Positions 4,154 through 28,400 of a stretch of DNA of 31,829 bases are shown piece by piece. Both the position numbers and the translations under genes were made by a program. Below the pieces are notes generated by a model, which made no database searches, was not told where the DNA came from, and saw nothing but the letters and a program-made list of their open reading frames with translations. This stretch comes from an uncultured Leptotrichia sp. (GTDB lineage: Bacteria > Fusobacteriota > Fusobacteriia > Fusobacteriales > Leptotrichiaceae): positions 1-31,829 of the forward strand of contig CALIJH010000167.1 of NCBI GenBank assembly GCA_938017765.1, written 5' to 3'. How positions within the stretch are numbered: the stretch's first letter is position 1; every line of letters starts with the position of its first letter.

Positions 4154-4338
4154 TAATATTGAACGAAAGTTTATAATATAAATAAGTTTTCAGTTAGAAT
4201 AAAGAAAGAGAATTGCGGCAATCTGTAAGAAAATAGCGGTTATTGGTTTTAGTTATTTGGATTTAACATTATCGGAATATCGGCTCAATCTATTTATCTT
4301 CGGGTAAATATGAATATTAAAAAGTCGGTATTTTTTAT

Positions 4339-4364
4339 TTTGAATTTAGAATTCTAAATTCAAA
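4339..4364. promoter_or_regulatory. 26-bp perfect palindrome TTTGAATTTAGAATTCTAAATTCAAA (putative operator) upstream of GT4 gene
   Basis: Perfect dyad symmetry centred on GAATTC. It sits in the 396-bp intergenic region about 185 bp upstream of the ATG at 4550. Confidence 0.4.
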
Positions 4365-4549
4365 GAGTAATATTTTTAATAGTATATATATTAGCGTATA
4401 CATTTAAGTATGTATTTAAAAGTATTTGTATAAATATTAAAGCATAAATACACCTTGATGATACAATACAAATATGCTACAATTCATCTAAATAAAAGGA
4501 AATAATTAAAGATAAAATACATAAAAATAGGCGGAGGAATAAAATAATT

Positions 4550-5815
4550 ATGAAAATATTGCATATATTGGCACAGTTACCTGTAAAGACAGGAAGTGGA
4601 GTTTATTTCACAAATGTCATTGACGGATTGAAAGAATATCGGGATATAGAGCAGGCATGTGTTTATGCTACGACAGCCGATTACGATATAAATATACTGG
4701 ACAGGAAAAATCAATATGAAGTAGTTTTTGAAAGTGAAAATCTCCCCTTTTCTATAGTAGGAATGAGTGATATTATGCCTTATCCCAATACGCTTTATCA
4801 TAATATGACCGACGAAATGTTCGGGCAATGGAAAAAGGAATTTCTGAAACAGTTAAATCTTGCAAAAAATAATTTTAATCCCGATGTAATATTGACTCAT
4901 CATCTTTGGATACTGTCATCAATGACAAGGGAGATTTTTCCCGATAAAAAAGTAGTTGCAGTATGCCATAATACTGATATAAGGCAGGCAAGGCAAAATG
5001 AAAGCCTGAAAAAAAGGCATATACACTCCCTGAAAGATGTGGATAATGTGCTGGCTCTAAGTAATAGACAGTTCAAGGATATAGAGGAAGTATTTGGAAT
5101 ATCGGAAGAAAAAATAATAGACATAGGGGCGGGATATAATGAAAAAATATTCTATCCGCCTGAACATTATCCTGAAAAAGAAAAAGTGGAATTAGTATAC
5201 GCAGGAAAGTTTGATGATTCCAAAGGGTTTTATGAACTGATAAAGGCATTTAGAAAAATAGAGGAAAATGACGACAGCGTTACGATAGATTTGATAGGTA
5301 ACATAACCGAACAGAATAGAGAAAGAATAAAAAAAGAAGTGGGAAATTCCAAAAATATTAATGTCTATAATGCTGTATCCCAGAAAGAATTAGCGGACAT
5401 TATGCGGACAAAGGATATTTTTATACTGCCTTCATATTTTGAAGGGTTGGGACTTATAGCTGTAGAAGCACTCGGGAGCGGTCTTAGAGTAGTTGCTACA
5501 AAGATAGACGGGCTTATAGAGCTGCTCGGAAAAGAGCTGAATGTTGATGAGATTATCGAATATGTCGATATGCCCACGATTTACGATACTGATAAAGCTG
5601 TGGAAGAAGAAAAACCTGCATTTGTATTGAGATTGGCAGATAAAATAGAAAATATGATAAAAAGAACAAGGGAAAAAAGAGAAATAGACAAGGCGTTGAT
5701 TGAAAAAATTCAGAAAAAATCATGGAAATCAAAAATAGAAGATATAAAAGATGTTTTGTGTAAAGATAATAACAGTTGCCACCAAACAAATATGAAAAAA
5801 GATATGGATAAATAA
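4550..5815 (+). CDS. GT-B fold glycosyltransferase, family GT4-like (retaining glycosyltransferase)
   Basis: 421-aa ORF with RBS GGCGGAGGA. The C-terminal sequence EGLGLIAVEALGSGLRVVATKIDGL matches the GT4 E-x7-E / 'EGFG...EAMA.G.PVV' signature. A 'KVELVYAGKFDDSKGF' nucleotide-sugar binding region is present. Confidence 0.8.
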   Translation: MKILHILAQLPVKTGSGVYFTNVIDGLKEYRDIEQACVYATTADYDINILDRKNQYEVVFESENLPFSIVGMSDIMPYPNTLYHNMTDEMFGQWKKEFLKQLNLAKNNFNPDVILTHHLWILSSMTREIFPDKKVVAVCHNTDIRQARQNESLKKRHIHSLKDVDNVLALSNRQFKDIEEVFGISEEKIIDIGAGYNEKIFYPPEHYPEKEKVELVYAGKFDDSKGFYELIKAFRKIEENDDSVTIDLIGNITEQNRERIKKEVGNSKNINVYNAVSQKELADIMRTKDIFILPSYFEGLGLIAVEALGSGLRVVATKIDGLIELLGKELNVDEIIEYVDMPTIYDTDKAVEEEKPAFVLRLADKIENMIKRTREKREIDKALIEKIQKKSWKSKIEDIKDVLCKDNNSCHQTNMKKDMDK

Positions 5816-6055: not shown

Positions 6056-6943
6056 ATGAAAAAAATGAAAAAAATTGCACTTTTGGCATTAGTAACAGCG
6101 TTAGTAATAACAGGGTGCGGAAAAAAGGAAAACAAGGAGGACGGAAAAAACGGAACAACAGCACAGGCAGAACAGAATAATGGGGCAGTAGATTTGAGCA
6201 AGGAAACGGCGGAATATAAAAAATTTGTTGAAGAGCAGATTGATATGCTTCTGAAAGATACTGAAAATTTTGCTCAATTATTGAAAAACGGAAAACTTGA
6301 AGAAGCTAAAAAAGTATATCCGTTAATACGTATGGCTTATGAAAGATCAGAGCCTATTGCTGAAAGTTTTGGAGAATCCGACATTAAGATAGATTACCGT
6401 TTAGTGGACTTTAAAGAGGAATTTAATACTGAAGAGGGTTGGAAAGGTTTCCATAGAATTGAAAAAATATTATGGGAGCAAAATACTACAAAGGGTACTG
6501 AAAAGTATGCTGATGAGCTTGTAAATGACATCAAGGAGTTGAAAGCCAAAATAGCGACTATAGAAGTAACTCCTGACATAATGCTTACAGGAGCTATAGA
6601 TTTATTAAATGAAGTTTCCACTCAAAAAATCACAGGAGAGGAAGAAGTATTCTCCCATACTGATTTATATGATTTTAGAGCAAATATTGAGGGAGCACAG
6701 AAAATATTTGAACTATTTAGGTCAAAATTAGAAAAAAAAGACAGCAAACTTGTAGCAACTTTAGATTCAGAGTTTAAAGCTGTAAACGGACTGCTTGACA
6801 AATATATGACAGATGATAAAAACTATAAACTGTACACTGACTTGACAAAGGAGGACACAAAAGCACTTGCGGAAGCTGTAACCAAGCTTGGAGAACCTTT
6901 ATCCCAAATGGGAATAATACTGGATGTAAAAGAAGGTAAGTAA
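6056..6943 (+). CDS. efeO: EfeO/EfeM-like iron-uptake lipoprotein (imelysin / peptidase M75 fold)
   Basis: Lipoprotein signal with lipobox (LVITGC). The M75/imelysin HxxE motif is present (GFHRIEKILW). RBS GGAGG lies 10 nt upstream. At 295 aa there is no N-terminal cupredoxin domain, so it is closer to EfeM-type. Confidence 0.8.
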   Translation: MKKMKKIALLALVTALVITGCGKKENKEDGKNGTTAQAEQNNGAVDLSKETAEYKKFVEEQIDMLLKDTENFAQLLKNGKLEEAKKVYPLIRMAYERSEPIAESFGESDIKIDYRLVDFKEEFNTEEGWKGFHRIEKILWEQNTTKGTEKYADELVNDIKELKAKIATIEVTPDIMLTGAIDLLNEVSTQKITGEEEVFSHTDLYDFRANIEGAQKIFELFRSKLEKKDSKLVATLDSEFKAVNGLLDKYMTDDKNYKLYTDLTKEDTKALAEAVTKLGEPLSQMGIILDVKEGK

Positions 6944-6944
6944 T

Positions 6945-8186
6945 ATGAGTGATGATAACAAAGAAAAAAAATGGTTTGATAAAAAAATATCCCGTCGTGA
7001 TTTTTTAAAAAAAGCGGGAATAGCCGGAGCAGGAGTTGCAGTAGGGGCGACAGGTGTCGGTGCCATTATGTCAAGCCTATTCGGCAATGTTGCCGAACAG
7101 TTTGAGGGGAAAGACGAAATTTCCTTTTATGGAAAACATCAATCGGGAATATCCACTCCCGTACAGAAAAATGTATACTTTGCAGTACTGGAGTTACATT
7201 CCGAAAATAAGGAAGAAGTCAAGGAAATGTTCAAGGAATGGACAGATTATACTGAAAAAATGATGAAAGGGGAGCTTATAGCTCCCGAATTGAAAAATCA
7301 TCTGTTGCCTCCTGTCGATACTGGGGAAACGGTAGGATTAAATCCTTATCGTTTGACTGTAACTTTCGGAATAAGTCCGACATTTTTGGATAAACTGAAA
7401 CTGGACAGTAAAAAAATTGAAGAATTTAAAGATTTGCCCCATTTCCCGAGAGACCAGATAAAAGAACGTTATAAAGGCGGAGATATATGTATTCAGGCTT
7501 GCGCCGATGACGCACAGGTGGCTTTTCATGCGGTGAGAAATCTTGTTCGTAAAGGACGTACACTCATTACACTGAAGTGGAGCCAGTCAGGATTTTTGCC
7601 TATAGGGAATGGAAAAGAAACTCCGAGAAATCTATTCGGATTTAAGGACGGGACTGAAAATCCGAAAAATGAAAATGATTTTAATAATATAGTATGGTAT
7701 GATAAGGATAACTGGCTGAAAGACGGAACATATATGGTGGTGAGACGTATCCAAATGCACCTTGAAACATGGGACCGTACTAATTTGCAGGAACAGGAAA
7801 ATACATTCGGAAGATATAAAGAAAGCGGTGCTCCTTTCGGAGAAAAAGATGAATTTGCCGTGATTGATATAAATAAAAAAGGACCTGACGGAAATCCCGT
7901 ACTTCCCATTGACTCCCATGTGTTTTTAGCAAAAAAGGCTGAAACGAAAATCTGTCGCCGTGCTTTTTCCTATTCTGACGGAATTAATGAAATAAGCGGT
8001 CAGTTTGACGCAGGACTGCTGTTTATATGTTTTCAGAAAAATCCTGAACAGTTTATCAAAATCCAGAACAGTCTCGGAAACGAAGATAAGCTGAATGAGT
8101 ATATTACTCACATAGGTACAGGGATTTTTGCATGTTTCGGAGGGATAAGGAAAGGGGAATATATTGGCCAAAAATTATTTGAATAA
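6945..8186 (+). CDS. efeB: Tat-secreted DyP-type peroxidase / deferrochelatase EfeB
   Basis: Twin-arginine signal SRRDFLKKAGIAGAGVAVGA. DyP-type peroxidase family similarity throughout. It follows efeO with a 1-nt gap. Confidence 0.9.
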   Translation: MSDDNKEKKWFDKKISRRDFLKKAGIAGAGVAVGATGVGAIMSSLFGNVAEQFEGKDEISFYGKHQSGISTPVQKNVYFAVLELHSENKEEVKEMFKEWTDYTEKMMKGELIAPELKNHLLPPVDTGETVGLNPYRLTVTFGISPTFLDKLKLDSKKIEEFKDLPHFPRDQIKERYKGGDICIQACADDAQVAFHAVRNLVRKGRTLITLKWSQSGFLPIGNGKETPRNLFGFKDGTENPKNENDFNNIVWYDKDNWLKDGTYMVVRRIQMHLETWDRTNLQEQENTFGRYKESGAPFGEKDEFAVIDINKKGPDGNPVLPIDSHVFLAKKAETKICRRAFSYSDGINEISGQFDAGLLFICFQKNPEQFIKIQNSLGNEDKLNEYITHIGTGIFACFGGIRKGEYIGQKLFE

Positions 8187-9846
8187 ATTCAGAATTACGT
8201 TATTAGTGTGTTTTGTTTTCTTCTGTGCTAATATTATTGCAAAAGAGAGTTACAGTGAAATTTATGTAAAAATAACCGATGCAACTACTGCCCTTAGAAA
8301 CAATGATAAAAAAGAAGCAGAAAAAATTGCAAAAGAAATAAAAGAAAAATTTAGGACTGTAAAAAATGCCAATTCTCCCCAAGGGTCAAAAGTACAGGAA
8401 CTTCTGAATAAAGGAGATGTAACTGAAGATAATCTGAAAGAGATTACAAAAGCACTTCTGGCATTTGAAAAGGAACAGAATCCTGTTGACGAAACTCAGG
8501 TGAAAAAAGATTTTAAAGCGAAAGTGTTTCCTGCTCTTGATACTCTGGAAAAAGTTATTCGGAGTAAAGACGTGGAAGCTATGAAAAAGGAATATCTGAA
8601 ATATAACGGCGTTTGGACAAGAAATGAAGCAGTAATTAGGGATAGAGACACCGTTTATTACGGAAAAGTCGAAACTGCCATGGCTTTCCTGCGAAGCTCC
8701 ATGGAAATGGAACCTTTCAACTACGACAATGTCATAAGCTCATTTAATGACCTGAAAACCGTTATTCAGGAATTTCTCGACGGAAAGAAAGTCGAAAATG
8801 CTTCTTCTGAAAACATTACTTTAAAACAGGCTGTAGATTTGCTGAAAGAGGGACTTGACGCATTTAAGTCAGGAGATAACGGTACGGGGCAGTCAAAAGT
8901 AAAAAAATTTATACAAGTCTGGCCTACTGTAGAGGGAGATGTAAGTACACGTAACGGTGCCCTTTATACAAAAGTTGAGACACAGACACCCGTAATAATG
9001 GTAAAAGGCGGAGAAAAGCAGTATCAGGAGCAGTTGCAGGGATTGATAGACGAACTGTCCCAAATTGACACAAAAGCCGAATATACTTTTTTGGATGCGA
9101 TGTTTATACTGCTTCGTGAAGGAGTGGAAGCATTGCTGATAGTATTGGCACTGGTGAGCGGACTGAAAGCTGCAAATCAGAAACGTGGACTGAAATGGGT
9201 ATACGCAGGAGCAGTAGCGGGAATTCTTGCGAGTATCGTTATTGCCGTTATTCTTCAAAAAGTGTTTCCGGCTGTGTCTTCGGGGACAAACCGTGAGATA
9301 CTTGAGGGATTTGTAGGTATATTTGCAGTAGCAATGATGATAGGAATAGGAGTATGGCTGCATAGCAGGTCTTCTTTGAAAGCTTGGAAAGACTATATGG
9401 AAAGAAAAATGAATATCGTAGTAAGTACGGGAAGTTTTATTTCGATGTTTGTATTGAGTTTTCTTGCCGTATTCAGGGAAGGTGCCGAAACAATACTGTT
9501 TTATGTAGGAATTTTACCTTTAATATCGGTGCAGAACCTCATCATAGGTATTTTGAGTGCCATCGTAATACTTATCATAATTGCATTGGTTCTTATATAT
9601 GCTTCTTCGAAAATAAAAGTACACAGAGTATTTTTTATACTCACATGGACTATCTATTTTCTTGCGTTTAAAATGTTGGGAACAAGTATTCATATGTTGC
9701 AGGTTGTGGGGGTTGTCCGTTTACATCTGATAAAATTTATACCTACGGTGGAAATATTAGGTATTTACGCGAACTGGGAAGTGTTTATAAGTCAGGTTAT
9801 TTTTATAATCCTGATTGCATCAATAACACTGAAAAGAAAAAAATAA
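8164..9846 (+). CDS. efeU: FTR1-family ferrous iron permease EfeU with ~290-aa N-terminal extracytoplasmic extension
   Basis: Two REGxE motifs (REGVEAL, REGAETI) in TM helices, typical of FTR1/EfeU. It has an N-terminal signal peptide. It apparently starts at TTG and overlaps efeB by 23 nt. Confidence 0.8.
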   Translation: MAKNYLNKFRITLLVCFVFFCANIIAKESYSEIYVKITDATTALRNNDKKEAEKIAKEIKEKFRTVKNANSPQGSKVQELLNKGDVTEDNLKEITKALLAFEKEQNPVDETQVKKDFKAKVFPALDTLEKVIRSKDVEAMKKEYLKYNGVWTRNEAVIRDRDTVYYGKVETAMAFLRSSMEMEPFNYDNVISSFNDLKTVIQEFLDGKKVENASSENITLKQAVDLLKEGLDAFKSGDNGTGQSKVKKFIQVWPTVEGDVSTRNGALYTKVETQTPVIMVKGGEKQYQEQLQGLIDELSQIDTKAEYTFLDAMFILLREGVEALLIVLALVSGLKAANQKRGLKWVYAGAVAGILASIVIAVILQKVFPAVSSGTNREILEGFVGIFAVAMMIGIGVWLHSRSSLKAWKDYMERKMNIVVSTGSFISMFVLSFLAVFREGAETILFYVGILPLISVQNLIIGILSAIVILIIIALVLIYASSKIKVHRVFFILTWTIYFLAFKMLGTSIHMLQVVGVVRLHLIKFIPTVEILGIYANWEVFISQVIFIILIASITLKRKK

Positions 9847-9936
9847 TAAAAATAAAATGATTTTGTCTACTTTTGTCCGTATAATGACAGTAGCCATAGC
9901 AAAAAAATAAAAAAGAAAAAAAGAAAGGATGTGTCC

Positions 9937-10647
9937 ATGTCGGAAGATAAAGCTCAAACATTAATAGAGCATATCGGAGAATTCAGGAAAAGGCTTATAA
10001 TAACAATAATATTTTTTCTGATTGCATTTTCAGTAAGTCTGATATTCTGTGCAGATATTTATAAAATGCTGACATATCCTTTTTCAAAAAAACTTGTCGT
10101 GTTAGGGCCTAACGATATTCTTGAGATATATATTACACTGGCAGGGATATGTGCTTTCAGTTTTACACTGCCTTTCGCGAGTTATCAGCTGTGGGCGTTT
10201 GTAAAACCGGGACTGAAAGAAAAAGAAGCTAAAATGGTGCTTTCATATATTCCCGCAATATTTATTCTGTTTGTTTCGGGACTTGCTTTCGGCTTTTTTA
10301 CGGTAACACCTGCACTTTTGAAAGTACTGCTTTCTATCGGGGAAGACCTGTTTAGTGTGCAGGTTACTGCACAAAGTTATCTGAAATTTGTAATACATAC
10401 TTCATTGCCTATTGCATTTGTTTTTGAACTGCCTGTTATAGCGGCTTTTCTGACATCATTACATATTTTGACCCCTGCTTATCTGGTAAAGAACAGAAGA
10501 TACGGATACTTTATATTGCTTGTACTGGCAGTCATTCTGACTCCTGCCGATTTCATAAGTGATTTGGCAATGACAGTACCGTTAATTCTGATTTATGAAG
10601 TAAGCGTCGTGGTCAGTAAATATATTTATAGGAAAAGGAGAGGATAG
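9937..10647 (+). CDS. tatC: Twin-arginine translocase subunit TatC
   Basis: Six-TM protein with the TatC N-terminal 'HIGEFRKRLI' region. AAAGGA lies 7 nt before the ATG at 9937. The ORF track starts 6 nt earlier at GTG 9931. Confidence 0.9.
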   Translation: MSEDKAQTLIEHIGEFRKRLIITIIFFLIAFSVSLIFCADIYKMLTYPFSKKLVVLGPNDILEIYITLAGICAFSFTLPFASYQLWAFVKPGLKEKEAKMVLSYIPAIFILFVSGLAFGFFTVTPALLKVLLSIGEDLFSVQVTAQSYLKFVIHTSLPIAFVFELPVIAAFLTSLHILTPAYLVKNRRYGYFILLVLAVILTPADFISDLAMTVPLILIYEVSVVVSKYIYRKRRG

Positions 10648-10650
10648 TAA

Positions 10651-10845
10651 ATGGGAATTTTTAGAGATATTGGGACACCCGGACTGATAGTCATAATACT
10701 GGGAGCATTACTTATTTTTGGACCTAAACGTCTGCCGGAACTGGGAGAAGCTGTAGGAAAAATGCTTAAAGAATTTAAAAAATCAATGTCTGATATAACA
10801 GATGAAAACGATACTAAAAAAAATGATGACAAAGAAAAACAGTAA
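10651..10845 (+). CDS. tatA: Twin-arginine translocase subunit TatA/E
   Basis: 64 aa. Single TM followed by the amphipathic helix LIFGPKRLPELG, the canonical TatA motif. Strong RBS GGAGAGG. Confidence 0.9.
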   Translation: MGIFRDIGTPGLIVIILGALLIFGPKRLPELGEAVGKMLKEFKKSMSDITDENDTKKNDDKEKQ

Positions 10846-10932: not shown

Positions 10933-10963
10933 AATATGTAACTTTAGTTACATATTTTTTTTA
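10933..10963 (+). terminator. Rho-independent terminator after tatA (ATATGTAACT-tt-AGTTACATAT + T8)
   Basis: Perfect 10-11 bp inverted repeat followed by a T-run. It lies 90 nt downstream of the tatA stop. Confidence 0.6.
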
Positions 10964-11030
10964 TGAATATGATATAATTGGATATACAAAATAATTGAAT
11001 ATATAATTTTTTGATAGATTAAAGATAAAG

Positions 11031-11095
11031 TTTATAAAAAAAGAAAAAAGAAAAAAGAAAAAAAAGAAAGAAAATAGAAAAAGAAAGGCAGCATA
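11031..11095. repeat. Poly-purine simple sequence repeat (AAAAAAG)n
   Basis: Runs of A6-8 punctuated by single G (aaaaaaagaaaaaagaaaaaagaaaaaaaagaaagaaaatagaaaaagaaagg) in the intergenic region upstream of the DUF1858 cassette. Confidence 0.8.
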
Positions 11096-11212
11096 TCAAT
11101 AATATTGAACTAAAATTCTGAATATTCTTTATCTATAACTATAGAATAAAAAGAAAACAAATCAAAAATATCGAATTAAAATATAATTGAGATATAAGAA
11201 AGGAGAAATATT

Positions 11213-12439
11213 ATGAATAAATTTTTCGGCTTAAATGATACATTGTATCAAATTGTGGAAAAATATCCCGAAACACTCGAATTTTTTATAGCTAACGGAT
11301 TTGAGCAGCTAAAAAATAAACAGATGTTTGAGTCAATGGCAAAAAATATAAAACTCAATATGGCTTTAAAAATAAAGAAAATCAATCCTGAATTGTTTGA
11401 AGAAAAATTAGTTGCATTTTTGCAGAAAGACAGCGAAACTGATATCTCCCTTGAGGGGAAAAAGGAAAATGCCACGGGAGATATACTTATAGAGGGAGTT
11501 TTACCCTGTCCTATCAGGATACCTCTGCTGGAAGGCATAAAAAAATGGGCTGAAACGAGAAATAAAGAAGTAGATTATAAGATAGATTATGAATTGCAGT
11601 CGGCAAATCTGGGCTTGGACTGGGTTGTGGATAAAGTGAAAACAGGAAACCCTGATAAAGTCTCGGATATACTCTTATCGGCAGGGTTTGAGTTGTTTTT
11701 TGACAAGGAGCTTATGGGGCAGTTTATGGAAAAAGGAATATTTGAAACATATTTAAATGATATGAACAAAGATTTCTGTAATGAAGAAATTGACTTAAGA
11801 GACCCTAAAAAACAGTATGCCATAATGGGAGTAGTCCCTGCTGTGTTCCTTATAAATAAAACAGTTCTTGGAGACAGAAAGCCACCTGAAGTATGGGAAG
11901 ATATATTGAGCGAAGAACTGGAAGATTCGGTAGCTTTACCGATGAATGACCTCGACTTGTTCAATGCTCTCATTATCAATATATACAAAGACTACGGTTC
12001 TGAAGGTATTCAGAAACTTGCAAGGTCTTACAAGAAAAATCTTCATCCGGCACAAATGGTGAAAGCCAAAGGGAGAAGTGGAGACGCACCTGCCGTAAGT
12101 ATAATTCCGTATTTCTTTACACAGATGCTAATGGGAGCGACCGACCTCGAAGCCGTATGGCCGAAAGACGGGGCGTTACTCAGTCCTATATTTATGATTA
12201 CAAAAAAGTCCAAAAAAGATAAAATTCAGCCTTTTATAGATTTCTTTATGTCCGAAGAAATAGGGACACTGTTTTCCGCTAACGGAAAATTTCCGTCGAC
12301 AAATCCCAATGTGGACAATCATCTGAAAGAAGACCAGAAATTTAAATGGATTGGCTGGGATTTCATTCATAGCAATGACGTCGGAGGATTAGTCAGAAAA
12401 TGCGAAGATGAATTTAACGAAGCCATTATGAAATTATAA
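11213..12439 (+). CDS. Cytoplasmic DUF1858-like N-terminal domain fused to a periplasmic-binding-protein (PBP type II, SBP family 1-like) domain; function unknown
   Basis: 408 aa with RBS AAAGGAG. The first ~70 aa (…EKYPETLEFFIANGF…) resemble DUF1858/ScdA_N. The C-terminal part carries 'IQPFIDFFMSEEIGTLFSANGKFPS', resembling the SBP_bac_1-type 'FIDFLLSxEgQ' motif. No signal peptide. Confidence 0.65.
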   Translation: MNKFFGLNDTLYQIVEKYPETLEFFIANGFEQLKNKQMFESMAKNIKLNMALKIKKINPELFEEKLVAFLQKDSETDISLEGKKENATGDILIEGVLPCPIRIPLLEGIKKWAETRNKEVDYKIDYELQSANLGLDWVVDKVKTGNPDKVSDILLSAGFELFFDKELMGQFMEKGIFETYLNDMNKDFCNEEIDLRDPKKQYAIMGVVPAVFLINKTVLGDRKPPEVWEDILSEELEDSVALPMNDLDLFNALIINIYKDYGSEGIQKLARSYKKNLHPAQMVKAKGRSGDAPAVSIIPYFFTQMLMGATDLEAVWPKDGALLSPIFMITKKSKKDKIQPFIDFFMSEEIGTLFSANGKFPSTNPNVDNHLKEDQKFKWIGWDFIHSNDVGGLVRKCEDEFNEAIMKL

Positions 12440-12554: not shown

Positions 12555-13259
12555 ATGAATTTAATAATAGTTTCAGGACCACCCTCATCAGGAAAAACAA
12601 GTGTAATATTGAAAACTGTTGACGCCCTGAAGAAACAGGGAATGTCAGTGGGAGTAGTAAAATTTGACTGCTTGTATACAGATGACGATATATTGTATGA
12701 AAAAGCAGGAATACCTGTAAAAAAAGGTATTTCGGGAGCATTATGTCCTGACCATTTTTTTGTATCGAATATAGAAGAAGTAGTACAGTGGGGCAGAAGT
12801 TTGGGACTTTCCATGCTTATAACCGAATCGGCGGGTCTTTGTAATCGTTGTTCGCCATATATAAAGGATATAAAAGGGATATGTGTAATCGACAATCTGT
12901 CGGGCATAAATACACCTAAAAAAATAGGACCTATGCTGAAAGCCGCAGATATAGTTATTATTACTAAAGGAGATATTGTTTCGCAGGCTGAAAGGGAAGT
13001 ATTTGCCTCAAGGGTAAATTCTGTAAATCCCGGTGCTATAACAATGCACGTAAACGGGCTTACAGGACAGGGAGCCTATGAATTAAGCACACTGCTTTAT
13101 GAAAAGGAAAAAGAAATAGAAACTGTTCAGGGGAAAAAACTCAGATTTCCTATGCCGTCGGCTCTATGTTCCTATTGTCTTGGGGAAACGAGAATAGGAG
13201 AAAAATATCAAATGGGAAATGTCAGAAAAATGAATTTAGGCGGTAATAACGATGAATAA
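12555..13259 (+). CDS. SIMIBI-class P-loop GTPase, G3E family-like (HypB/UreG/CobW-like putative metallochaperone)
   Basis: Walker A GPPSSGKTS at residue 8. Switch-II-like ESAGLCNRCSP (cf. HypB ENVGNLVCP). TKGD (NKxD-like) and a 'NGLTGQG' G5-like motif are present. Additional C-terminal CSYC motif. Strong RBS AGGAGG. Confidence 0.7.
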   Translation: MNLIIVSGPPSSGKTSVILKTVDALKKQGMSVGVVKFDCLYTDDDILYEKAGIPVKKGISGALCPDHFFVSNIEEVVQWGRSLGLSMLITESAGLCNRCSPYIKDIKGICVIDNLSGINTPKKIGPMLKAADIVIITKGDIVSQAEREVFASRVNSVNPGAITMHVNGLTGQGAYELSTLLYEKEKEIETVQGKKLRFPMPSALCSYCLGETRIGEKYQMGNVRKMNLGGNNDE

Positions 13260-14265
13260 AAAACTTGTAGATGAACTGAAAATGTCCGAATTACTGGACA
13301 AGTATCCTTTTACGGAAAATTTTTTCAGTGAAAATGTTATCGACATAAAAGGTCATGAAAATGAGACATTCAGTGAGTTCTTAGATAAATTTGCCGAAGA
13401 AGAAATAGAAGATATGGCATTGGATACAGAAAAAATAAAAGAGGGGTTAATCGAATATATCGAACAGATGAAGCTGTTTCTTGGAATGGAAGAAGAGAGC
13501 GGTGTCGAAGTTCTGACAATAATTGCGGGAAAAGATAAAACGGGTAATCCTGAAGGTTTTGAAAGACTTGATATAAACAAATCGGAAATAATATCTATAG
13601 TAGGGCCTACAGGCTCTGGAAAATCAAGACTGCTCGCAGATATAGAATGGACGGCTCAAAAAGATACGCCGACACAGAGAGAAATACTTATTAACGGGGA
13701 GCTGCCTGACAAAAAATGGAGATATTCATCAAACAATAAGCTTGTCGCCCAGTTATCCCAAAATATGAATTTTGTCATGGATTTATCCGTGAGGGATTTT
13801 TTGGAATTGCATGCTAAAAGCAGAATGATAGATGATATTCAGGGAGTAACTGATAAAATCATAGAAGAAGCAAATAAACTTGCAGGAGAGCAGTTTAATC
13901 TCGATACGCCGATTACAGCCCTCAGTGGGGGACAGTCAAGGGCATTGATGATAGCAGACACTGCAATACTAAGTTCTTCGCCTATAGTCCTGATAGATGA
14001 GATTGAAAATGCGGGAATTGACAGAAAGAAAGCCCTCGATTTACTCGTTTCATCAGATAAGATTGTACTTATGGCGACTCATGACCCCACATTGGCATTG
14101 ATAGCCGATAAAAGAATTATAATCAAAAATGGAGGTATTTCAAAAATAATAAAAACAAGCCCTAAAGAAAAGAAAATTTTGTCAAAGCTTGAAGAAATGG
14201 ATAATATTATCCAAAAAATGAGAACAGATTTAAGAAATGGGGAAATATTGACAGATAATAAATAA
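13252..14265 (+). CDS. Soluble ABC-type ATPase with N-terminal DUF1858-like module (no cognate permease in locus)
   Basis: Walker A GPTGSGKS, ABC signature LSGGQSRAL, Walker B IVLIDEIENAGID and H-loop MATHD are present. The N-terminus MNKKLVDELKMSELLDKYPFTENFF is paralogous to the N-terminus of the 11213 ORF. It overlaps the upstream GTPase gene by 8 nt. Confidence 0.8.
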   Translation: MNKKLVDELKMSELLDKYPFTENFFSENVIDIKGHENETFSEFLDKFAEEEIEDMALDTEKIKEGLIEYIEQMKLFLGMEEESGVEVLTIIAGKDKTGNPEGFERLDINKSEIISIVGPTGSGKSRLLADIEWTAQKDTPTQREILINGELPDKKWRYSSNNKLVAQLSQNMNFVMDLSVRDFLELHAKSRMIDDIQGVTDKIIEEANKLAGEQFNLDTPITALSGGQSRALMIADTAILSSSPIVLIDEIENAGIDRKKALDLLVSSDKIVLMATHDPTLALIADKRIIIKNGGISKIIKTSPKEKKILSKLEEMDNIIQKMRTDLRNGEILTDNK

Positions 14266-15366: not shown

Positions 15367-15590
15367 TAATCAGAAATAAAAAATTCTGGTCTATTCGTTA
15401 CCGACGATACAATTTTTGGGCTTTACTCTTTCTTAATGGGGTCAGACTTTTGTATTTTGAATCAGGCACATCACGGCGGTTCTATACTTTGCACGGATTC
15501 TGTACAATTTACAAATATGACTACCACCTGTACCAACTACAGGCGACCAAAAATTCAGTCGAAACGGTAGATTGGATTTTTTTAATTTGT
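15367..15590 (+). ncRNA. Candidate small non-coding RNA (GC-enriched structured region driven by consensus promoter); identity unknown
   Basis: About 220 nt with clearly higher GC than the flanking intergenic DNA. It contains several hairpins (e.g. CCTGTA-ccaac-TACAGG at 15528-15544) and no ORF longer than 16 codons. It ends in a T-rich stretch near 15590. Confidence 0.3.
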
Positions 15591-15953: not shown

Positions 15954-16616
15954 TTATAATTTCGAAAAATCTACCTGATATTTATTGTTTTTAATTTTTT
16001 TCAAAATACCTCTATCGCATAATGTCGAGATTTCCCTCGAAAGGGAGGGTCTTGTAATTTCAAATTTTTTTGAAAGTTCGGATATATTGGGCTGAAATGA
16101 GATAATCCCGTCTTTTTGATTTTCCCTTATATAGCTGAGGATTTTGTCATTTATAGTTTTATTGACAAAATTAAACCATATTCTTTTGGATAAAAGCTGA
16201 CTTTTATTGGATATTTCATCGAGGAAATTTAAAAGAATTCTCTTATCCTCCTGCATAATTTCCACAAAATCTTTTTTATTCAGAAATAAATATTTGGATT
16301 TTTCAACGGAAATGAGGTCTACAGGGAAAACTTTAGTATCTCCGAATATAAATGCGGGAGCTATAATTTCGTAAGTTTTTATAAAGTCAATAGTGATAGT
16401 TTCTCCCCCTGATTTCTGCATTTCCCCTTTGGCAGAGCCTTCGAGGATAATGATGATATTTTCAATATTATCTCCTCTGAAAAATACCGTTTCATTTTTT
16501 TTATAATTTCTGATATGATAATTTATTTTTTTTAGTACGGCTTCTGTTTCATTTATGTCAAATCCTTTAAATAAGGAAACTTTTGATATTATTTTATAAA
16601 GTTCGTGGGGTTTCAT
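15954..16616 (-). CDS. Crp/Fnr-family transcriptional regulator (cNMP-binding domain + C-terminal HTH)
   Basis: 220 aa with an N-terminal cyclic-nucleotide-binding-like beta-roll. C-terminal HTH 'ISELSKKFEITRPSLSREISTLCDRGILKK'. There is no N-terminal Cys cluster, so it is not an FNR-type O2 sensor. RBS GGGAGG. Confidence 0.85.
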   Translation of the reverse strand: MKPHELYKIISKVSLFKGFDINETEAVLKKINYHIRNYKKNETVFFRGDNIENIIIILEGSAKGEMQKSGGETITIDFIKTYEIIAPAFIFGDTKVFPVDLISVEKSKYLFLNKKDFVEIMQEDKRILLNFLDEISNKSQLLSKRIWFNFVNKTINDKILSYIRENQKDGIISFQPNISELSKKFEITRPSLSREISTLCDRGILKKIKNNKYQVDFSKL

Positions 16617-25118: not shown

Positions 25119-25411
25119 GCTGTTTCTAAAAAAAACTTTGTATATCAATAATTACATTAGGTTGAAATGATAATTAAAAAATAATAAAATTTTTAAAAAT
25201 AGATTTTTTTTATCAATATGGAGTAGACATAAAAATGAAAACGAGGTATATTTTATAAAAGAATATTAAATATTGTTTTATTTAGTATTAATATAATGGG
25301 CTATTTTTAAATTTTTGGCGAAAAAAGGAGAAAAAAATGAAAAATATATTTTAACAGAACTATTTATTCACTAAAAATTAAATTTTCAAGCATAAAAGGA
25401 GGAAAAAGTAT

Positions 25412-28400
25412 ATGATCAGTAATTTAGAAAAATTGAAAAAGGAGCTGAAATCTTTTGCAAAGAGGACAAAGGACTTTAAATACACGGATTCCGTATTGAT
25501 ATTGTTTCTTTTAGTAGGGGTTATAAGTCTTGTAGAAACGACTAATCTTTTCGCTGCCGGAGACAGTATAGGAGAGCAGAGAAAACAACTCAACAGTTCT
25601 ATCAGCAATATGAAACAGTCAATCAGAAAAGCACGGACAGAAAATAACAAACTTCTCAGTTCTGCCACAATAGAGCTTATCCAATTAATGGAACAGGGAG
25701 ATCATGTTGTAAAATCGCCTTGGAGTTCGTGGCAGTTTGGACAGAATTTTGAATATAATAATTGGCGTGGAACTTTTAAAGGGCGTGGAGACAAAACGGA
25801 AAAATATCCTTACGAAGGTTTATTTAAAAGGGGAAATTCCATATTTGAAAGATATGCTTCCCCTATCAGCCCAAACTATGACAGACTCTCGGCAATTTCA
25901 TCATTAAATAAAACGGATATATATTCGGCTTCATCGAATAATAGAGAAGGGATAGAGCCGGGTTATGGACTTGTGCGTATTCGTCAGGCGCAGGAGCCAA
26001 TTGTTGCAATTAATGTAGATGCTTCGATAAGACCAAAAGTGGTAGATGTGAGTATTCCAAATTTGGGAATACAGGCACCTTCATTAAATGCATTGAACGT
26101 ACCTAACTTAATTCCGCCTTCACTTAACATACCTACACCTGACCCGATTGTAGTACCTGACAAGACACCTAACATTGTGATAAATCCAACATTGGATTAC
26201 CGTTTTGCCGGGCGTAATATAGATGGTTTAGGATGGCCTCACAGAAGAGAAGCTAATGGACAAGGTAAACATTTCTGGTCCGGATGGAATCCGGATACAA
26301 ATCAGAAAGATAGAAGATCAGTATGGAAACATTCTTTAATTGGTGGGACACCTGATCCTATAAGAGTTCCAAACTTGATGTATGTAAATGCGGTAAACAG
26401 AAATCCGGGTTCAAGATGGAGAGCTTGGGATGCTACAATTGATATAGCCGGAGACCCTAGCTGGGGAGGAAGCGGACCAAATGATGCCAGAGGAACTATA
26501 GGAATCCATACAGTATGGGACGGAAGTATTGAAAACATACATGCAACTCTTCATGGATATTCAGCTTTTATTGCAACAGAAGGGTGGCATAGTGGAAAAG
26601 TAGATATAATTAATACAACTGTAGATGTTCAGGGAGAATACAATACAGTATTTCATAATTATCCGGGAGCATACTATACAATAGGAATAAATAATAATGA
26701 TTATCAGTCTTATCATCAAAGAGGGAAATATAGCGGAGATTTGAGAATAAATATAAATGCCAATAATAACTATATTTATACTGTTATGGGAGTTCAGGGA
26801 GCATATAAATATGACAATCTCTCAGACTATGTTATAAATGGTAATGGTAATATTGTTTATTTAGGAATAGGATATGTTCCAAATCTTGATACCCTTAGAA
26901 ATGGAGAAACAGGATTTCAAACTGGTAGGCCGATGATATCGGATTTGCGTCATGACGAAAACTTGACTCCTGTTATTCAGTTAGGAACACAAACAGGGGC
27001 GATACGTGTAAATGGTAATGGAAATGTTGGATTAATGTTTGAAAACTTGTATAGAAATTTCCATACCGGAGATAATTTGCCATACAATTCGCTTCATGAT
27101 TTCCGTGATTATGTTGAAGTAGAGCAAAATGGTTGGGCGAAAAGTGTAATAGGTATTTATCAAGGGGAAATTGAAATGGGAATGAAAATAGGAGAAACTT
27201 CTGAATCTAAAGGAAATGTAGGAATAATTTCAAGATCCGGTCAAAGGTCGTACATAATTCCAAGCTATGATTTGGGGGCACCTGATGATTATCTGAAACA
27301 AAAGTCTATAGATATAGCTTTTAATACAAAAGGAGTAACTTCACAGGGAATTCCGCTACTTGATGACGACCCGATACATAACCTTGAAATAGCAAAGGCT
27401 GAAATTTATTATGGTAAATATTCAACAGACGGAATATCTATTATAGCAGACAGAGGAACGGTAATAGATGTGGCAAGACCTGATAAAGCTAAAACTCCGT
27501 ATGTTCCTGATACAGATCCTAATGATGGCATTGATGACTCAAGAGCTGAACAACGTCAACCATACAAGGATGTAACTCCTTCAACTTCAATAAATGATTC
27601 AGCAGGAACAGTAATAAGTTCTGTAGATGATACAGTAAACCAAGCAGCGACAGGAACAATTATCGCTTATTCAAAAGGTGTTTGGAATAATGAATTTATG
27701 AACTCGAATATGTATAGCGATCCTATTGTAGATCTTTATGGTAAACCGAGTGAAGTTAATCTTTATGCGCCTGTAAGGCTGTCAGGAAGATCAGGATTTA
27801 CGCCTTCCGGTCAGGTAAATCCGTCAATTGCATTGTTTACCGAAGAATCCGGAATAATTAATGCTAAAGAAAAAGTTACTGCAATGGGATACGGATCAAT
27901 AGTTGCGTATGCAATGAACTATGGGGTTATAAATGCTGAAAAAGAAATTGTGGCTAAAGATGAATGGGCAGCAACAGATGACGCAACAAAGCCTTATCTA
28001 TATAATAATGTAGGGGCTTATGCCGGCTCTCTCGGTACAGTAAATGTAACTGGAAATGTAGATGTTCACGGTATAGGAGCTATGGCTTCAGGAGCGTATG
28101 CCGTCGTAAATCTTAACGGAACGGGAAATACAATCAGAACAGGAACAAAAGGTGGATTGGTCGCAACTCAAGGTGGAATAGTAAACTTTAAGGGTGGTAC
28201 AATTACACACGCTGAAAATGAAGAAGATGACCACGATTCAAGTACGCCAATGTTTGCTGATGCGACATCACACATAAACTTTACAGGACCTACAACAATT
28301 AACATTGCAAACGGTATCCTTATGCCGGGAACAACAGCCGATTATGAGGCAACAACTCCTAACGTTACAAAATATAACGGAATGAACAATGTAACAATAA

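Follow-up and report, generated by a model that had tools for sequence, protein, structure and literature searches.

A G3E-type GTPase linked to a predicted cytoplasmic binding protein and a soluble ABC ATPase behind an HcpR2-type operator in Leptotrichia

Introduction

Characterised chaperones among the G3E GTPases deliver nickel, cobalt/B12 or zinc, as well as iron in the case of the Fe-type nitrile hydratase activator. Members of the COG0523/CobW family, including this activator and the zinc chaperones ZigA and ZagA, handle metals other than nickel. [quoted passage not shown] Hcp itself is a widespread anaerobic enzyme of NO detoxification, and we know of no route by which its unique Fe-S-O cluster is constructed or repaired. 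The enzyme matters for gut and oral bacteria, including pathogens, that have to survive host- or nitrate-derived nitrosative stress. The COG0523/CobW family has a literature of its own (PMC2770081), and in enterobacteria the di-iron protein YtfE, which carries a ScdA_N domain, is co-regulated with hcp as part of the NsrR regulon (PMC9052748).

Here we analyse a GTPase gene in a 31,829-nt stretch of DNA (the window) from an uncultured Leptotrichia sp. (contig CALIJH010000167.1). The original prediction regarded this GTPase as a lone gene, whereas its two flanking genes turned out to be obligate partners, and the HcpR2 box upstream is common to hcp. A search of the open-access literature found no experimental paper on the GTPase family or the operon.

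Results

A minimal G3E GTPase outside the named subfamilies

The central gene of the operon (gene 2) and the motifs of its product are located as follows:
12555..13259, plus strand: gene 2, G3E (HypB/UreG-like) GTPase of 234 aa (ORF with ATG start, Pfam match, AlphaFold2 model)
12576..12599, plus strand: P-loop/Walker A GPPSSGKT, residues 8-15 (G8, G13 and K14 invariant in 26 homologues)
12744..12755, plus strand: C64-P-D-H67, equivalent of the HypB 'CH' and UreG 'CPH' (conservation, and alignment to C95/H96 of HypB 2hf8)
12825..12851, plus strand: Walker B with Glu (E91-S-A-G94), followed by L-C96-N-R-C99 (conservation and HypB alignment)
12963..12974, plus strand: G4-like TKGD, residues 137-140, replacing NKxD (aligned to HypB 'NKID')
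13167..13178, plus strand: C205-S-Y-C208 in the C-terminal low-structure tail (P201, C205 and C208 at least 90% conserved)

An AGGAGG lies 6 nt 5' of the ATG, and the end of the GTPase gene, including its stop, overlaps the start of gene 3 (13252) by 8 nt. Several sequence features noted in the original prediction were borne out: the protein lacks a His-rich or N-terminal tail and its P-loop (GPPSSGKT, residues 8-15) directly follows strand 1, a second CxxC (CSYC, residues 205-208) lies near the C-terminus, and TKGD (residues 137-140) stands in place of NKxD. Within this G4 motif T137 is at least 90% conserved, while the Lys and Asp vary in distant members, the variants across the family including TKxD, TRxD, THGD and TKGE. 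The AlphaFold2 model of the protein has a pLDDT of 90.1; in residues 201-230, which hold the second CxxC, pLDDT falls to 66-76 and no secondary structure is predicted.

The protein matches Pfam PF02492 (cobW) over residues 4-162 with 44.9 bits (cut-off 20.7), and carries the hallmarks by which G3E proteins are recognised, namely Walker A GxxxxGK[ST], Walker B/G3 ExxG and, between the two, a Cys/His motif (C64-P-D-H67). In a Foldseek search against the PDB, the top six matches of the model were all HypB (2hf8/2wsm/4lps) or UreG (4hi0/5xkt), with E-values between 1.5e-10 and 5e-9 and with TM-scores, normalised to the target, of 0.65-0.74. At the same time, every NCBIfam equivalog model scored below its cut-off: TIGR00073 (hypB) gave 40.5 bits against 121.2 and PRK10463 gave 17.9 against 385; TIGR00101 (ureG) 30.2 against 204.2; TIGR00176 (mobB) 27.1 against 76.2, with PF03205 at 19.2 against 26.6; TIGR00750 (MeaB) 13.4 against 240.75; and TIGR02475 (CobW) 12 against 332.1. 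Solved MeaB proteins matched the GTPase profile with E-values of 2e-6 or weaker, and neither the CxCC motif nor a CobW_C domain was found in the sequence or by Pfam search. These scores support the prediction of a metal-binding-type GTPase belonging to a G3E subgroup outside HypB, UreG, MobB, MeaB and CobW.

A few other database hits were set aside. Matches to MobB or other non-metal SIMIBI proteins cover the P-loop region alone (residues 4-38) with scores below cut-off. RecA proteins, which headed the PDB sequence searches, are an artefact of six-fold concatenated RecA chains of which only the P-loop region aligned. The match to the CobW-related selenoprotein family NF041053 (UxxC) is confined to residues 1-36, so the GTPase belongs to another family. 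Orthologues are labelled 'GTP-binding protein', 'hypothetical' or 'UreG' in databases, and the last of these labels is unsupported, with TIGR00101 below cut-off and urease genes absent.

Conserved cysteines align with the metal ligands of HypB

Among 26 GTPase homologues, extending to 29% identity, C64, C96 and C99 never vary, and conservation is at least 90% at C205 and C208; P65 is likewise invariant and D66 at least 90% conserved, as are E91, G94 and L95 (invariant) and R98 (at least 90%) around the Walker B motif. A wider set of 54 sequences retains C96 in 53, C99 in 50, C64 in 46 and H67 in 40. Identity within the family is 78-86% between phyla and 78-96% overall. Judged from these alignments, the conservation among homologues rules out chance as the origin of the Cys residues. 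The original prediction had named clustering with MobB or another non-metal SIMIBI family, together with unconserved cysteines, as grounds for abandoning it; neither was observed.

HypB (M. jannaschii 2HF8, H. pylori 4LPS) is both the best profile match (E = 1.4e-15) and the best fold match among solved structures. The two proteins have in common the P-loop, a Walker B with Glu, a Cys-His motif that lies between the two Walker motifs, and a Cys that directly follows Walker B. Alignment with the M. jannaschii protein (2hf8) corrects the position given to CNRC (residues 96-99, nt 12840-12851), whose double Cys opens switch II. This motif had been placed at the CH/CPH site of HypB and UreG, whereas it pairs with the post-Walker-B loop 'ENVGNLICP' of HypB, within which 'NLICP' contains the third Zn/Ni ligand Cys. 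It is C64-P-D-H67, overlooked at the time, that pairs with the 'CH' of HypB. The aligned Cys/His ligands are those of which the dimer-interface metal site of HypB is made. The GTPase differs in having CPDH and two cysteines after Walker B (CxRC), where HypB has CH and one, and in its additional C-terminal CxxC and its TKGD in place of NKxD. Moreover, HypB is partnered by HypA, whereas the partners here are a binding protein predicted to be cytoplasmic and an ABC ATPase, with an HcpR2 box upstream.

UreG (4HI0, 5XKT; fold match E ~1e-9 to 1e-10) resembles the GTPase in its minimal size and in a P-loop at the very N-terminus, and its CPH position is matched by Cys-Pro-(x)-His. Unlike the GTPase, it has neither the switch-II double Cys nor the C-terminal CxxC, and no ureABCDEF genes lie near the present gene. 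The COG0523/CobW proteins have the PF02492 domain in common with it and provide a precedent for G3E members that handle iron or zinc, but their CxCC and CobW_C are missing here, and in profile matching the solved YjiA (5e-5) falls far behind HypB and UreG.

The GTPase is obligately linked to a binding protein and an ABC ATPase

The two genes flanking the GTPase gene are:
11213..12439, plus strand: gene 1, binding protein with N-terminal DUF1858 and SBP_bac_6 (FbpA/FutA-like) domains (Pfam, AlphaFold2)
13252..14265, plus strand: gene 3, soluble ABC-type ATPase of 337 aa with a DUF1858-like N-terminal extension (ABC_tran E = 7.3e-16)

In the product of gene 1 (SBP_bac_6 E = 2.7e-82, DUF1858 E = 1.2e-15) no signal peptide or lipobox was found, the N-terminus being occupied by the helical DUF1858 domain instead, and the sequence indicates that this binding protein is cytoplasmic. 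The structures nearest to its AlphaFold2 model (pLDDT 84) are the ferric-binding FbpA/FutA/HitA, AfuA and P5PA, at 10-16% identity. Binders of sugar phosphates, pyridoxal phosphate, thiamine and polyamines belong to this fold cluster as well; given the low identity of the FbpA-like match and this mixture of ligands, iron is not established as the ligand of the protein. Its C99 (LPCP) is invariant in both alignments, and H278 shows no variation among 20 homologues and 97% conservation among 77.

Across 83 orthologues of the ABC ATPase, conservation reaches at least 95% in Walker A, LSGGQ, Walker B and the H-loop, and the same analysis found no Cys. Residues 11-83 of the ATPase are similar to DUF1858 in the gene 1 product (29% identity, E = 6e-4). 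A SufC-like identity for this ATPase is unsupported, its best solved relatives being nucleotide-binding domains of transporters.

The three genes are obligately linked. The order binding protein-GTPase-ABC ATPase is kept in 79 of 80 genome loci, a set spanning Fusobacteriota, Bacillota, Bacteroidota, Acidobacteriota and Spirochaetota. The GTPase and ABC ATPase occur as single-chain fusions in two proteins (P0123 and P0124), and in another fusion (P0190) the C-terminal part of SBP_bac_6 is followed by a partial cobW domain. Even distant GTPase homologues (31-46% identity) still adjoin an orthologous ABC ATPase (43-51% identity). Recurrent neighbours are limited to the three operon genes, an 80-aa protein, hcp and a Crp-family regulator, and no permease gene is conserved beside the operon in the related loci; the operon therefore lacks both the exported binding protein and the permease that define an ABC importer. 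The small 80-aa Cys-rich partner occurs in some related loci, and its gene is absent from the present window; its identification as a HypA homologue was rejected, the zinc-ribbon similarity being sub-threshold (E = 0.0064).

An HcpR2-type operator precedes the operon and is found upstream of hcp

Three features bear on the regulation of the operon:
10937..10952, no strand: HcpR2-type operator, perfect palindrome TGTAAC-TTTA-GTTACA (exact match to GTAACnnnnGTTAC)
10970..10978, plus strand: extended -10 element TGATATAAT (read from the sequence, conserved in loci L002, L003 and L004)
15954..16616, minus strand: Crp/Fnr-family regulator with the HcpR2 signature T-R-P-S-L-S-R in its recognition helix (cNMP_binding E = 7.5e-12, with HTH_Crp_2)

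The HcpR2 box consensus, GTAAC-N4-GTTAC, and its link to hcp were described by Rodionov 2005 (PMC1274295). An exact GTAACnnnnGTTAC occurs once in the window, and none of 100 shuffles matched. The centre of the box (10944.5) lies ~41 nt upstream (about -41.5) of the inferred transcription start, relative to which the box would occupy a class II activator position. Leptotrichia loci conserve the box together with the distance that separates it from the -10 element. Of 74 loci searched over the 400 bp that precede the first gene of the operon, 50 have a box with up to one mismatch; the remaining 24 have no canonical box and may use variant HcpR motifs. In the related loci, exact boxes number 37 in 28.8 kb of sequence upstream of the operon versus 20 in 782 kb elsewhere (~50-fold enrichment), and the majority of those 20 are directly upstream of hcp, a cis-element that the operon and hcp thus have in common. 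The long, A-rich leader gave no match when searched with Rfam for riboswitches and other RNAs.

The regulator gene at 15954..16616 is located 2.7 kb from the GTPase gene, and regulators similar to its product adjoin the operon in other loci. Its recognition helix carries Arg-Pro at the positions of CRP R180/E181, and a Pro at the E181 position is tied to the GTAAC box in HcpR2-type regulators (Rodionov 2005, PMC1274295). From its sequence, this protein is the likely regulator of the operon. In one locus (L077), an Rrf2 regulator gene precedes the operon. The paper on the C. difficile HcpR regulon gives frdX-hcp as the only direct targets.

Genomic context points to Hcp and Fe-S proteins

The sole recurrent enzyme neighbour of the operon is hcp, which adjoins it in 24 of 84 loci, a count that is phylogenetically inflated since the adjacency is restricted to lineages of Bacillota (Tissierellia, Clostridia and Halanaerobiales). 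No hcp was found in the window, nor within 6-10 kb of the operon in any Leptotrichia locus. The original prediction that the client is not obvious from the neighbourhood thus stands for the window alone, where hydrogenase, urease and nitrile hydratase genes are indeed absent, but comparative genomics points to hcp and the HcpR2 regulon. Hydrogenase, urease, Ni-CODH and Ni/Zn transporter genes were not recurrent in the 84 loci, and hyp genes were neither present in the window nor recurrent in these loci. One member of the GTPase family (P0171) carries a fused PF04060 [4Fe-4S] domain, a divergent member adjoins FeS-domain proteins, SufB-SufC-SufD and ferritin, and other divergent members adjoin radical-SAM enzymes.

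Immediately upstream of the operon, the window has efeO, efeB and efeU, all for iron uptake, along with tatC and tatA. A functional tie to these EfeUOB/TatCA genes was rejected, this neighbourhood being unconserved in other Leptotrichia loci.

Discussion

The kinship with HypB and UreG, the fixed partners and the HcpR box upstream together make metal or iron-sulfur handling tied to Hcp the likely job of this operon. We see an even chance that it is a NO-induced cytoplasmic module for the delivery or repair of Fe or Fe-S, with Hcp as its probable client. In a cytoplasmic machine of three proteins, the GTPase would then be the metallochaperone subunit, driven by nucleotide; NO-responsive HcpR2 would turn on the operon together with hcp. 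By homology with HypB, the protein would dimerise upon GTP binding, and C64, H67, C96 and C99 from each chain would meet at the interface in a site rich in Cys and His, with the flexible C-terminal CxxC arm handing cargo in or out. The FbpA-like protein may hold iron or a small Fe-S unit for the machine, and under nitric oxide this cargo would be inserted, or re-inserted, into a client protein. The leading candidate client is the hybrid [4Fe-2S-2O] cluster protein Hcp, followed by NO-damaged Fe-S proteins in general. Active Hcp is made in E. coli and other organisms without the GTPase operon, so the operon cannot be universally required.

A more ambitious version of this proposal, which we regard as unlikely, is that the operon encodes the first machine dedicated to maturing or repairing the Hcp hybrid cluster: a cytoplasmic complex, driven by GTP and ATP, in which an FbpA-like protein holds iron, a HypB-like GTPase dimer assembles or carries it on a six-Cys/two-His interface site, and the soluble ABC ATPase powers the transfer. 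The operon would in that case be the founder of a wider and hitherto unrecognised class of 'G3E GTPase + soluble ABC ATPase' systems for metallocluster assembly, other branches of which are paired with radical-SAM enzymes or SufBCD.

A possible though doubtful alternative is a general system for iron or Fe-S repair or scaffolding under NO stress, reaching beyond Hcp, in which a GTPase dimer with a bridging [4Fe-4S] cluster at its CxxC motifs (as in Nbp35/ApbC and NifH-type SIMIBI proteins) and an ABC ATPase in a SufC-like role would supply clusters to any nitrosylated Fe-S protein, analogous to the repair role proposed for YtfE/RIC. Such a broad role would fit an operon that is co-regulated with hcp yet stands alone in most phyla, as it would the Leptotrichia loci that have the box and no nearby hcp, the divergent member beside sufBCD and ferritin, and the PF04060 FeS domains fused to or beside other members; the enterobacterial co-regulation of YtfE and hcp offers a parallel (PMC9052748). 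It sits less well with the ATPase, whose sequence is not SufC-like and whose nearest solved relatives belong to transporters, and with the operon's lack of a SufB, IscU or Nfu-type scaffold. Cluster binding, moreover, is solely inferred, and hcp remains the only enzyme that recurs as a neighbour.

Two further readings retain a more conventional role. The GTPase could be a Ni/Zn chaperone of the HypB, UreG or COG0523 kind that serves some Ni/Zn enzyme or buffers the zinc that NO sets free, in which case the iron link would be coincidental; its closest solved relatives, HypB and UreG, do bind Ni/Zn, their CH-type and switch-II Cys ligands align with its own, and the 80-aa Cys-rich partner, where present, has a faint HypA-like zinc-ribbon match (below threshold). 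We nevertheless consider this distinctly improbable, as hydrogenase, urease, Ni-CODH and Ni/Zn transporter genes do not recur in the 84 loci, every subfamily model scores below its cut-off, and the context that does recur is one of Hcp, HcpR2 and Fe-S proteins. Least probable of all is that the GTPase is an accessory of an ordinary iron ABC importer with its permease encoded elsewhere, for example with the upstream EfeUOB/Tat genes. Database names given to orthologues (such as 'iron ABC transporter substrate-binding protein') and the five efe and tat genes directly upstream speak for an importer. The importer reading was rejected for want of a signal peptide and of a conserved permease gene; in addition, the binding protein has a cytoplasmic DUF1858 at its N-terminus and no lipobox, the ATPase, which some organisms make as a fusion with the GTPase, begins with a DUF1858-like region, and the Efe/Tat neighbourhood is not conserved even among other Leptotrichia.

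Two described systems offer parallels to the proposed NO-induced Fe or Fe-S module. Like YtfE/RIC with Hcp, the operon would form an accessory iron-protein system under a NO-responsive regulator in common with hcp, and for YtfE/RIC, too, a role in managing iron or NO in the vicinity of Fe-S proteins has been put forward. Both systems include a small N-terminal domain that is all-helical, ScdA_N in YtfE and DUF1858 here. However, YtfE is a di-iron hemerythrin that does not hydrolyse nucleotides, whereas the operon comprises a binding protein, a G3E GTPase and an ABC ATPase, and its DUF1858 domains lack a Cys pair. By analogy, CooC comes close as a SIMIBI NTPase whose dimer interface carries a Cys motif and which puts metal into the complex Fe-S-based cluster of a Prismane-family enzyme, but it is a MinD-type ATPase with nickel as cargo, the present protein is a G3E GTPase, and CODH is absent from the examined loci.

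A branch of G3E proteins coupled to NO stress would constitute a new branch of metal trafficking, its novelty being greatest in the partners, a 'periplasmic-type' binding protein predicted to reside in the cytoplasm and an ABC ATPase without a membrane component. The GTPase family is spread over many anaerobic phyla, and there would be direct use for an accurate annotation and for a client that can be put to the test; two database names in use within the operon family, 'iron ABC transporter' and 'UreG', are wrong.

A G3E GTPase outside the curated subfamilies

The GTPase is encoded by the second gene of an operon of three:

11213–12439 (+), binding protein, 408 aa
12555–13259 (+), GTPase, 234 aa
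13252–14265 (+), ABC-type ATPase, 337 aa

A good ribosome-binding site precedes its reading frame, whose stop codon overlaps the start codon (ATG) of the following ORF. Every motif named in the original prediction was present in the translated protein:

Residues 8–15, P-loop GPPSSGKT, directly behind the first strand
Residues 96–99, CNRC
Residues 137–140, TKGD
Residues 205–208, CSYC

Pfam assigned the protein to the CobW/HypB/UreG family (PF02492, 44.9 bits vs a cut-off of 20.7), whereas all NCBIfam subfamily scores were sub-threshold: hypB (40.5, cut-off 121.2), ureG (30.2, cut-off 204.2), mobB (27.1, cut-off 76.2; P-loop match only), MeaB (13.4, cut-off 240.75) and CobW (12, cut-off 332.1). 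It thus belongs to the G3E GTPases but to none of the curated subfamilies, in agreement with the unassigned subgroup proposed originally. The AlphaFold2 model was confident (pLDDT 90.1), and the nearest solved structures were those of HypB (2hf8, 2wsm, 4lps) and UreG (4hi0, 5xkt). High-ranking RecA matches in the sequence searches were rejected as an artefact of concatenated RecA chains, confined to the P-loop region. Its members form a compact, highly conserved family: a word-index search returned 6501 proteins, the best 120 of which shared at least 82% identity with the query, and exhaustively searching 1.84 billion representatives clustered at 50% identity gave only 471 matches.

A HypB-type ligand set with additional cysteines

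Residue conservation was read from an alignment of 26 members with identity down to 29%. G8, G13, K14, C64, P65, E91, G94, L95, C96, C99, V111 and E146 were invariant, while D66, R98, T137, P201, C205 and C208, among others, were at least 90% conserved. The profile of this alignment matched Methanocaldococcus jannaschii HypB (E = 1.4e−15), aligning C64/H67 with the HypB 'CH' motif and the LCxRC loop with 'ENVGNLICP', the loop bearing the third HypB metal ligand. The earlier placement of CNRC at the CH/CPH position was therefore wrong; the equivalent is CPDH (64–67), which had been overlooked. HypB has one switch-II Cys, whereas CNRC is an expanded version of it. In the M. jannaschii HypB zinc complex (2HF8), the equivalent ligands create a metal-binding site at the dimer interface, which is nucleotide-dependent; by this homology, each chain of the GTPase should contribute three Cys and one His to such an interface. 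The C-terminal CxxC belongs to a tail modelled with lower confidence and devoid of predicted secondary structure, as would be expected of a flexible transfer arm.

Conserved operon partners

The binding protein carries an N-terminal DUF1858 followed by an SBP_bac_6 domain (Pfam) and lacks a signal peptide. The three genes occur in the same order in 79 of 80 genome loci with a GTPase orthologue, drawn from Leptotrichia and Fusobacteriaceae, many Bacillota, Labilibaculum, Ancylomarina, Aminicenantes and other Acidobacteriota, Treponema and Oceanispirochaeta. Identity to the window proteins was 78–96% for the GTPase, 58–85% for the ATPase and 41–84% for the binding protein. Across Fusobacteriota, Bacillota, Bacteroidota, Acidobacteriota and Spirochaetota (window vs related loci L007–L080), the GTPase was 78–86% and the binding protein only 41–62% identical, a difference that suggests extreme constraint, horizontal spread, or both.

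Related loci contained no conserved permease gene beside the operon, the sole recurrent neighbours found being an 80-aa protein, hcp and a Crp-family regulator. The ATPase retains all catalytic ABC motifs, and its first ~80 residues are similar to the binding protein's DUF1858 domain. GTPase–ABC fusions occur on single chains, and one chain joins the C-terminal part of SBP_bac_6 to a partial cobW domain. Distant GTPase members (31–46% identity) still adjoin the orthologous ABC ATPase, with a varying third partner. Taken together, these features indicate that the three proteins act together; linkage of the GTPase gene to that of a soluble ABC ATPase is obligate, and in the query's subfamily it extends to the gene of the cytoplasmic FbpA-like DUF1858 protein. 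The binding protein model (pLDDT 84) was nearest in fold to the ferric-binding proteins FbpA/FutA/HitA, yet AfuA, P5PA, TbpA and PotD also matched, all at 10–16% identity, making iron a plausible ligand.

The third partner is a PF04060 FeS-domain protein in loci L087 and L089; L091 and L093 have a radical-SAM enzyme together with a second copy of the GTPase in its place. In L087 (1001–7725), where the GTPase is 46% identical to the query, genes for the ABC ATPase, GTPase, a 198-aa protein, the PF04060 protein, SufB, SufC, SufD and ferritin follow one another on one strand, directly linking the wider family to Fe-S assembly genes. In L091/L092 (3806–7233) and L093 (8001–11364), two GTPase paralogues flank the radical-SAM enzyme and the orthologous soluble ABC ATPase comes next, in what looks like a separate, undescribed cofactor-maturation cassette.

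The gene for the 80-aa Cys-rich protein lies behind the ATPase gene in 32 loci (e.g. L062 4103–4345, L012 7695–7937) of Fusobacteriaceae, Bacteroidota, Aminicenantes and Tissierellia; the window has no such gene. H2, C5, C37, C40, C53, C56 and C65 are invariant; similarity to zinc ribbons and HypA was sub-threshold only.

An HcpR2 box shared with hcp

The following elements relate to regulation:

10937–10952, perfect palindrome TGTAAC-TTTA-GTTACA, 268 nt upstream of the first operon gene
~20 nt past the palindrome, extended −10 element TGATATAAT
15954–16616 (−), Crp/Fnr-family regulator gene

From the position of the −10 element, the palindrome centre is predicted to lie near −41.5. The core, GTAACnnnnGTTAC, is identical to the HcpR2 box that Rodionov et al. 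(PMC1274295) described ahead of hcp in Clostridia, Bacteroides, Thermotogales and Treponema; it occurs once in the window and was matched in 0 of 100 shuffles. Box and spacing to the −10 element are kept in other Leptotrichia, and in 50 of 74 related loci the 400 bp preceding the first operon gene contain a box with at most one mismatch. Exact boxes numbered 37 in 28.8 kb upstream of the operon vs 20 in 782 kb elsewhere, most of the latter directly upstream of hcp, so operon and hcp have a cis-element in common. The recognition helix of the window's regulator reads TRPSLSR, the Arg-Pro signature tied to the GTAAC box (Rodionov et al., PMC1274295).

Between promoter and first gene lies a ~190-nt A-rich, (AAAGAAAAAAG)n-like stretch (10990–11200) that matched no Rfam family; the promoter regions of L002, L003, L004 and L082, conserved in other respects, lack it. 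In Oceanispirochaeta locus L077, an Rrf2-family (NsrR/IscR-type) regulator gene (4296–4745) sits immediately upstream of the operon, with a GTAAC-N4-GTTAC box in front of it.

Proposed function

We classified the GTPase as a G3E metallochaperone whose set of partners and regulatory setting are both unprecedented. The original picture of a lone GTPase gives way to one with two conserved operon partners and a box common to hcp; its caution over the client holds, and we still infer both client and metal. The three proteins would form a cytoplasmic, NO-induced machine handling iron or a small Fe-S unit, with Hcp, or more generally NO-damaged Fe-S proteins, as putative client. In 24 of 84 loci, hcp (Prismane family, ~550 aa) neighbours the operon, but these are all Bacillota, and such restriction by lineage argues against an Hcp-only role. 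So do the Leptotrichia operons, none of which has hcp nearby, the lack of the canonical box in a third of loci, and E. coli, where Hcp matures without this system. Co-regulation of YtfE and hcp by NsrR in enterobacteria (PMC9052748) offers a parallel that supports the logic, not the mechanism, of the proposed machine.

We found no description of the operon in the open-access literature searched, and the names its proteins bear in databases are either generic or incorrect ('GTP-binding protein', 'UreG', 'iron ABC transporter substrate-binding protein').

Other features of the window

Directly upstream of the operon lies a complete iron-uptake cluster (6056–10845, +) encoding EfeO (imelysin), EfeB (DyP peroxidase, Tat signal) and EfeU (FTR1), followed by tatC and tatA. 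In other Leptotrichia loci this neighbourhood was not found; they carry a divergent HMA P-type ATPase gene instead. A 6S RNA (15380–15582, +; RF00013, 53.3 bits vs gathering score 46.4) is encoded between the gene for a DUF1275 protein and that for the HcpR2-like regulator. A giant open reading frame (25382–31828, +) of at least 2149 codons continues past the window end and may encode a large surface or autotransporter-type protein.
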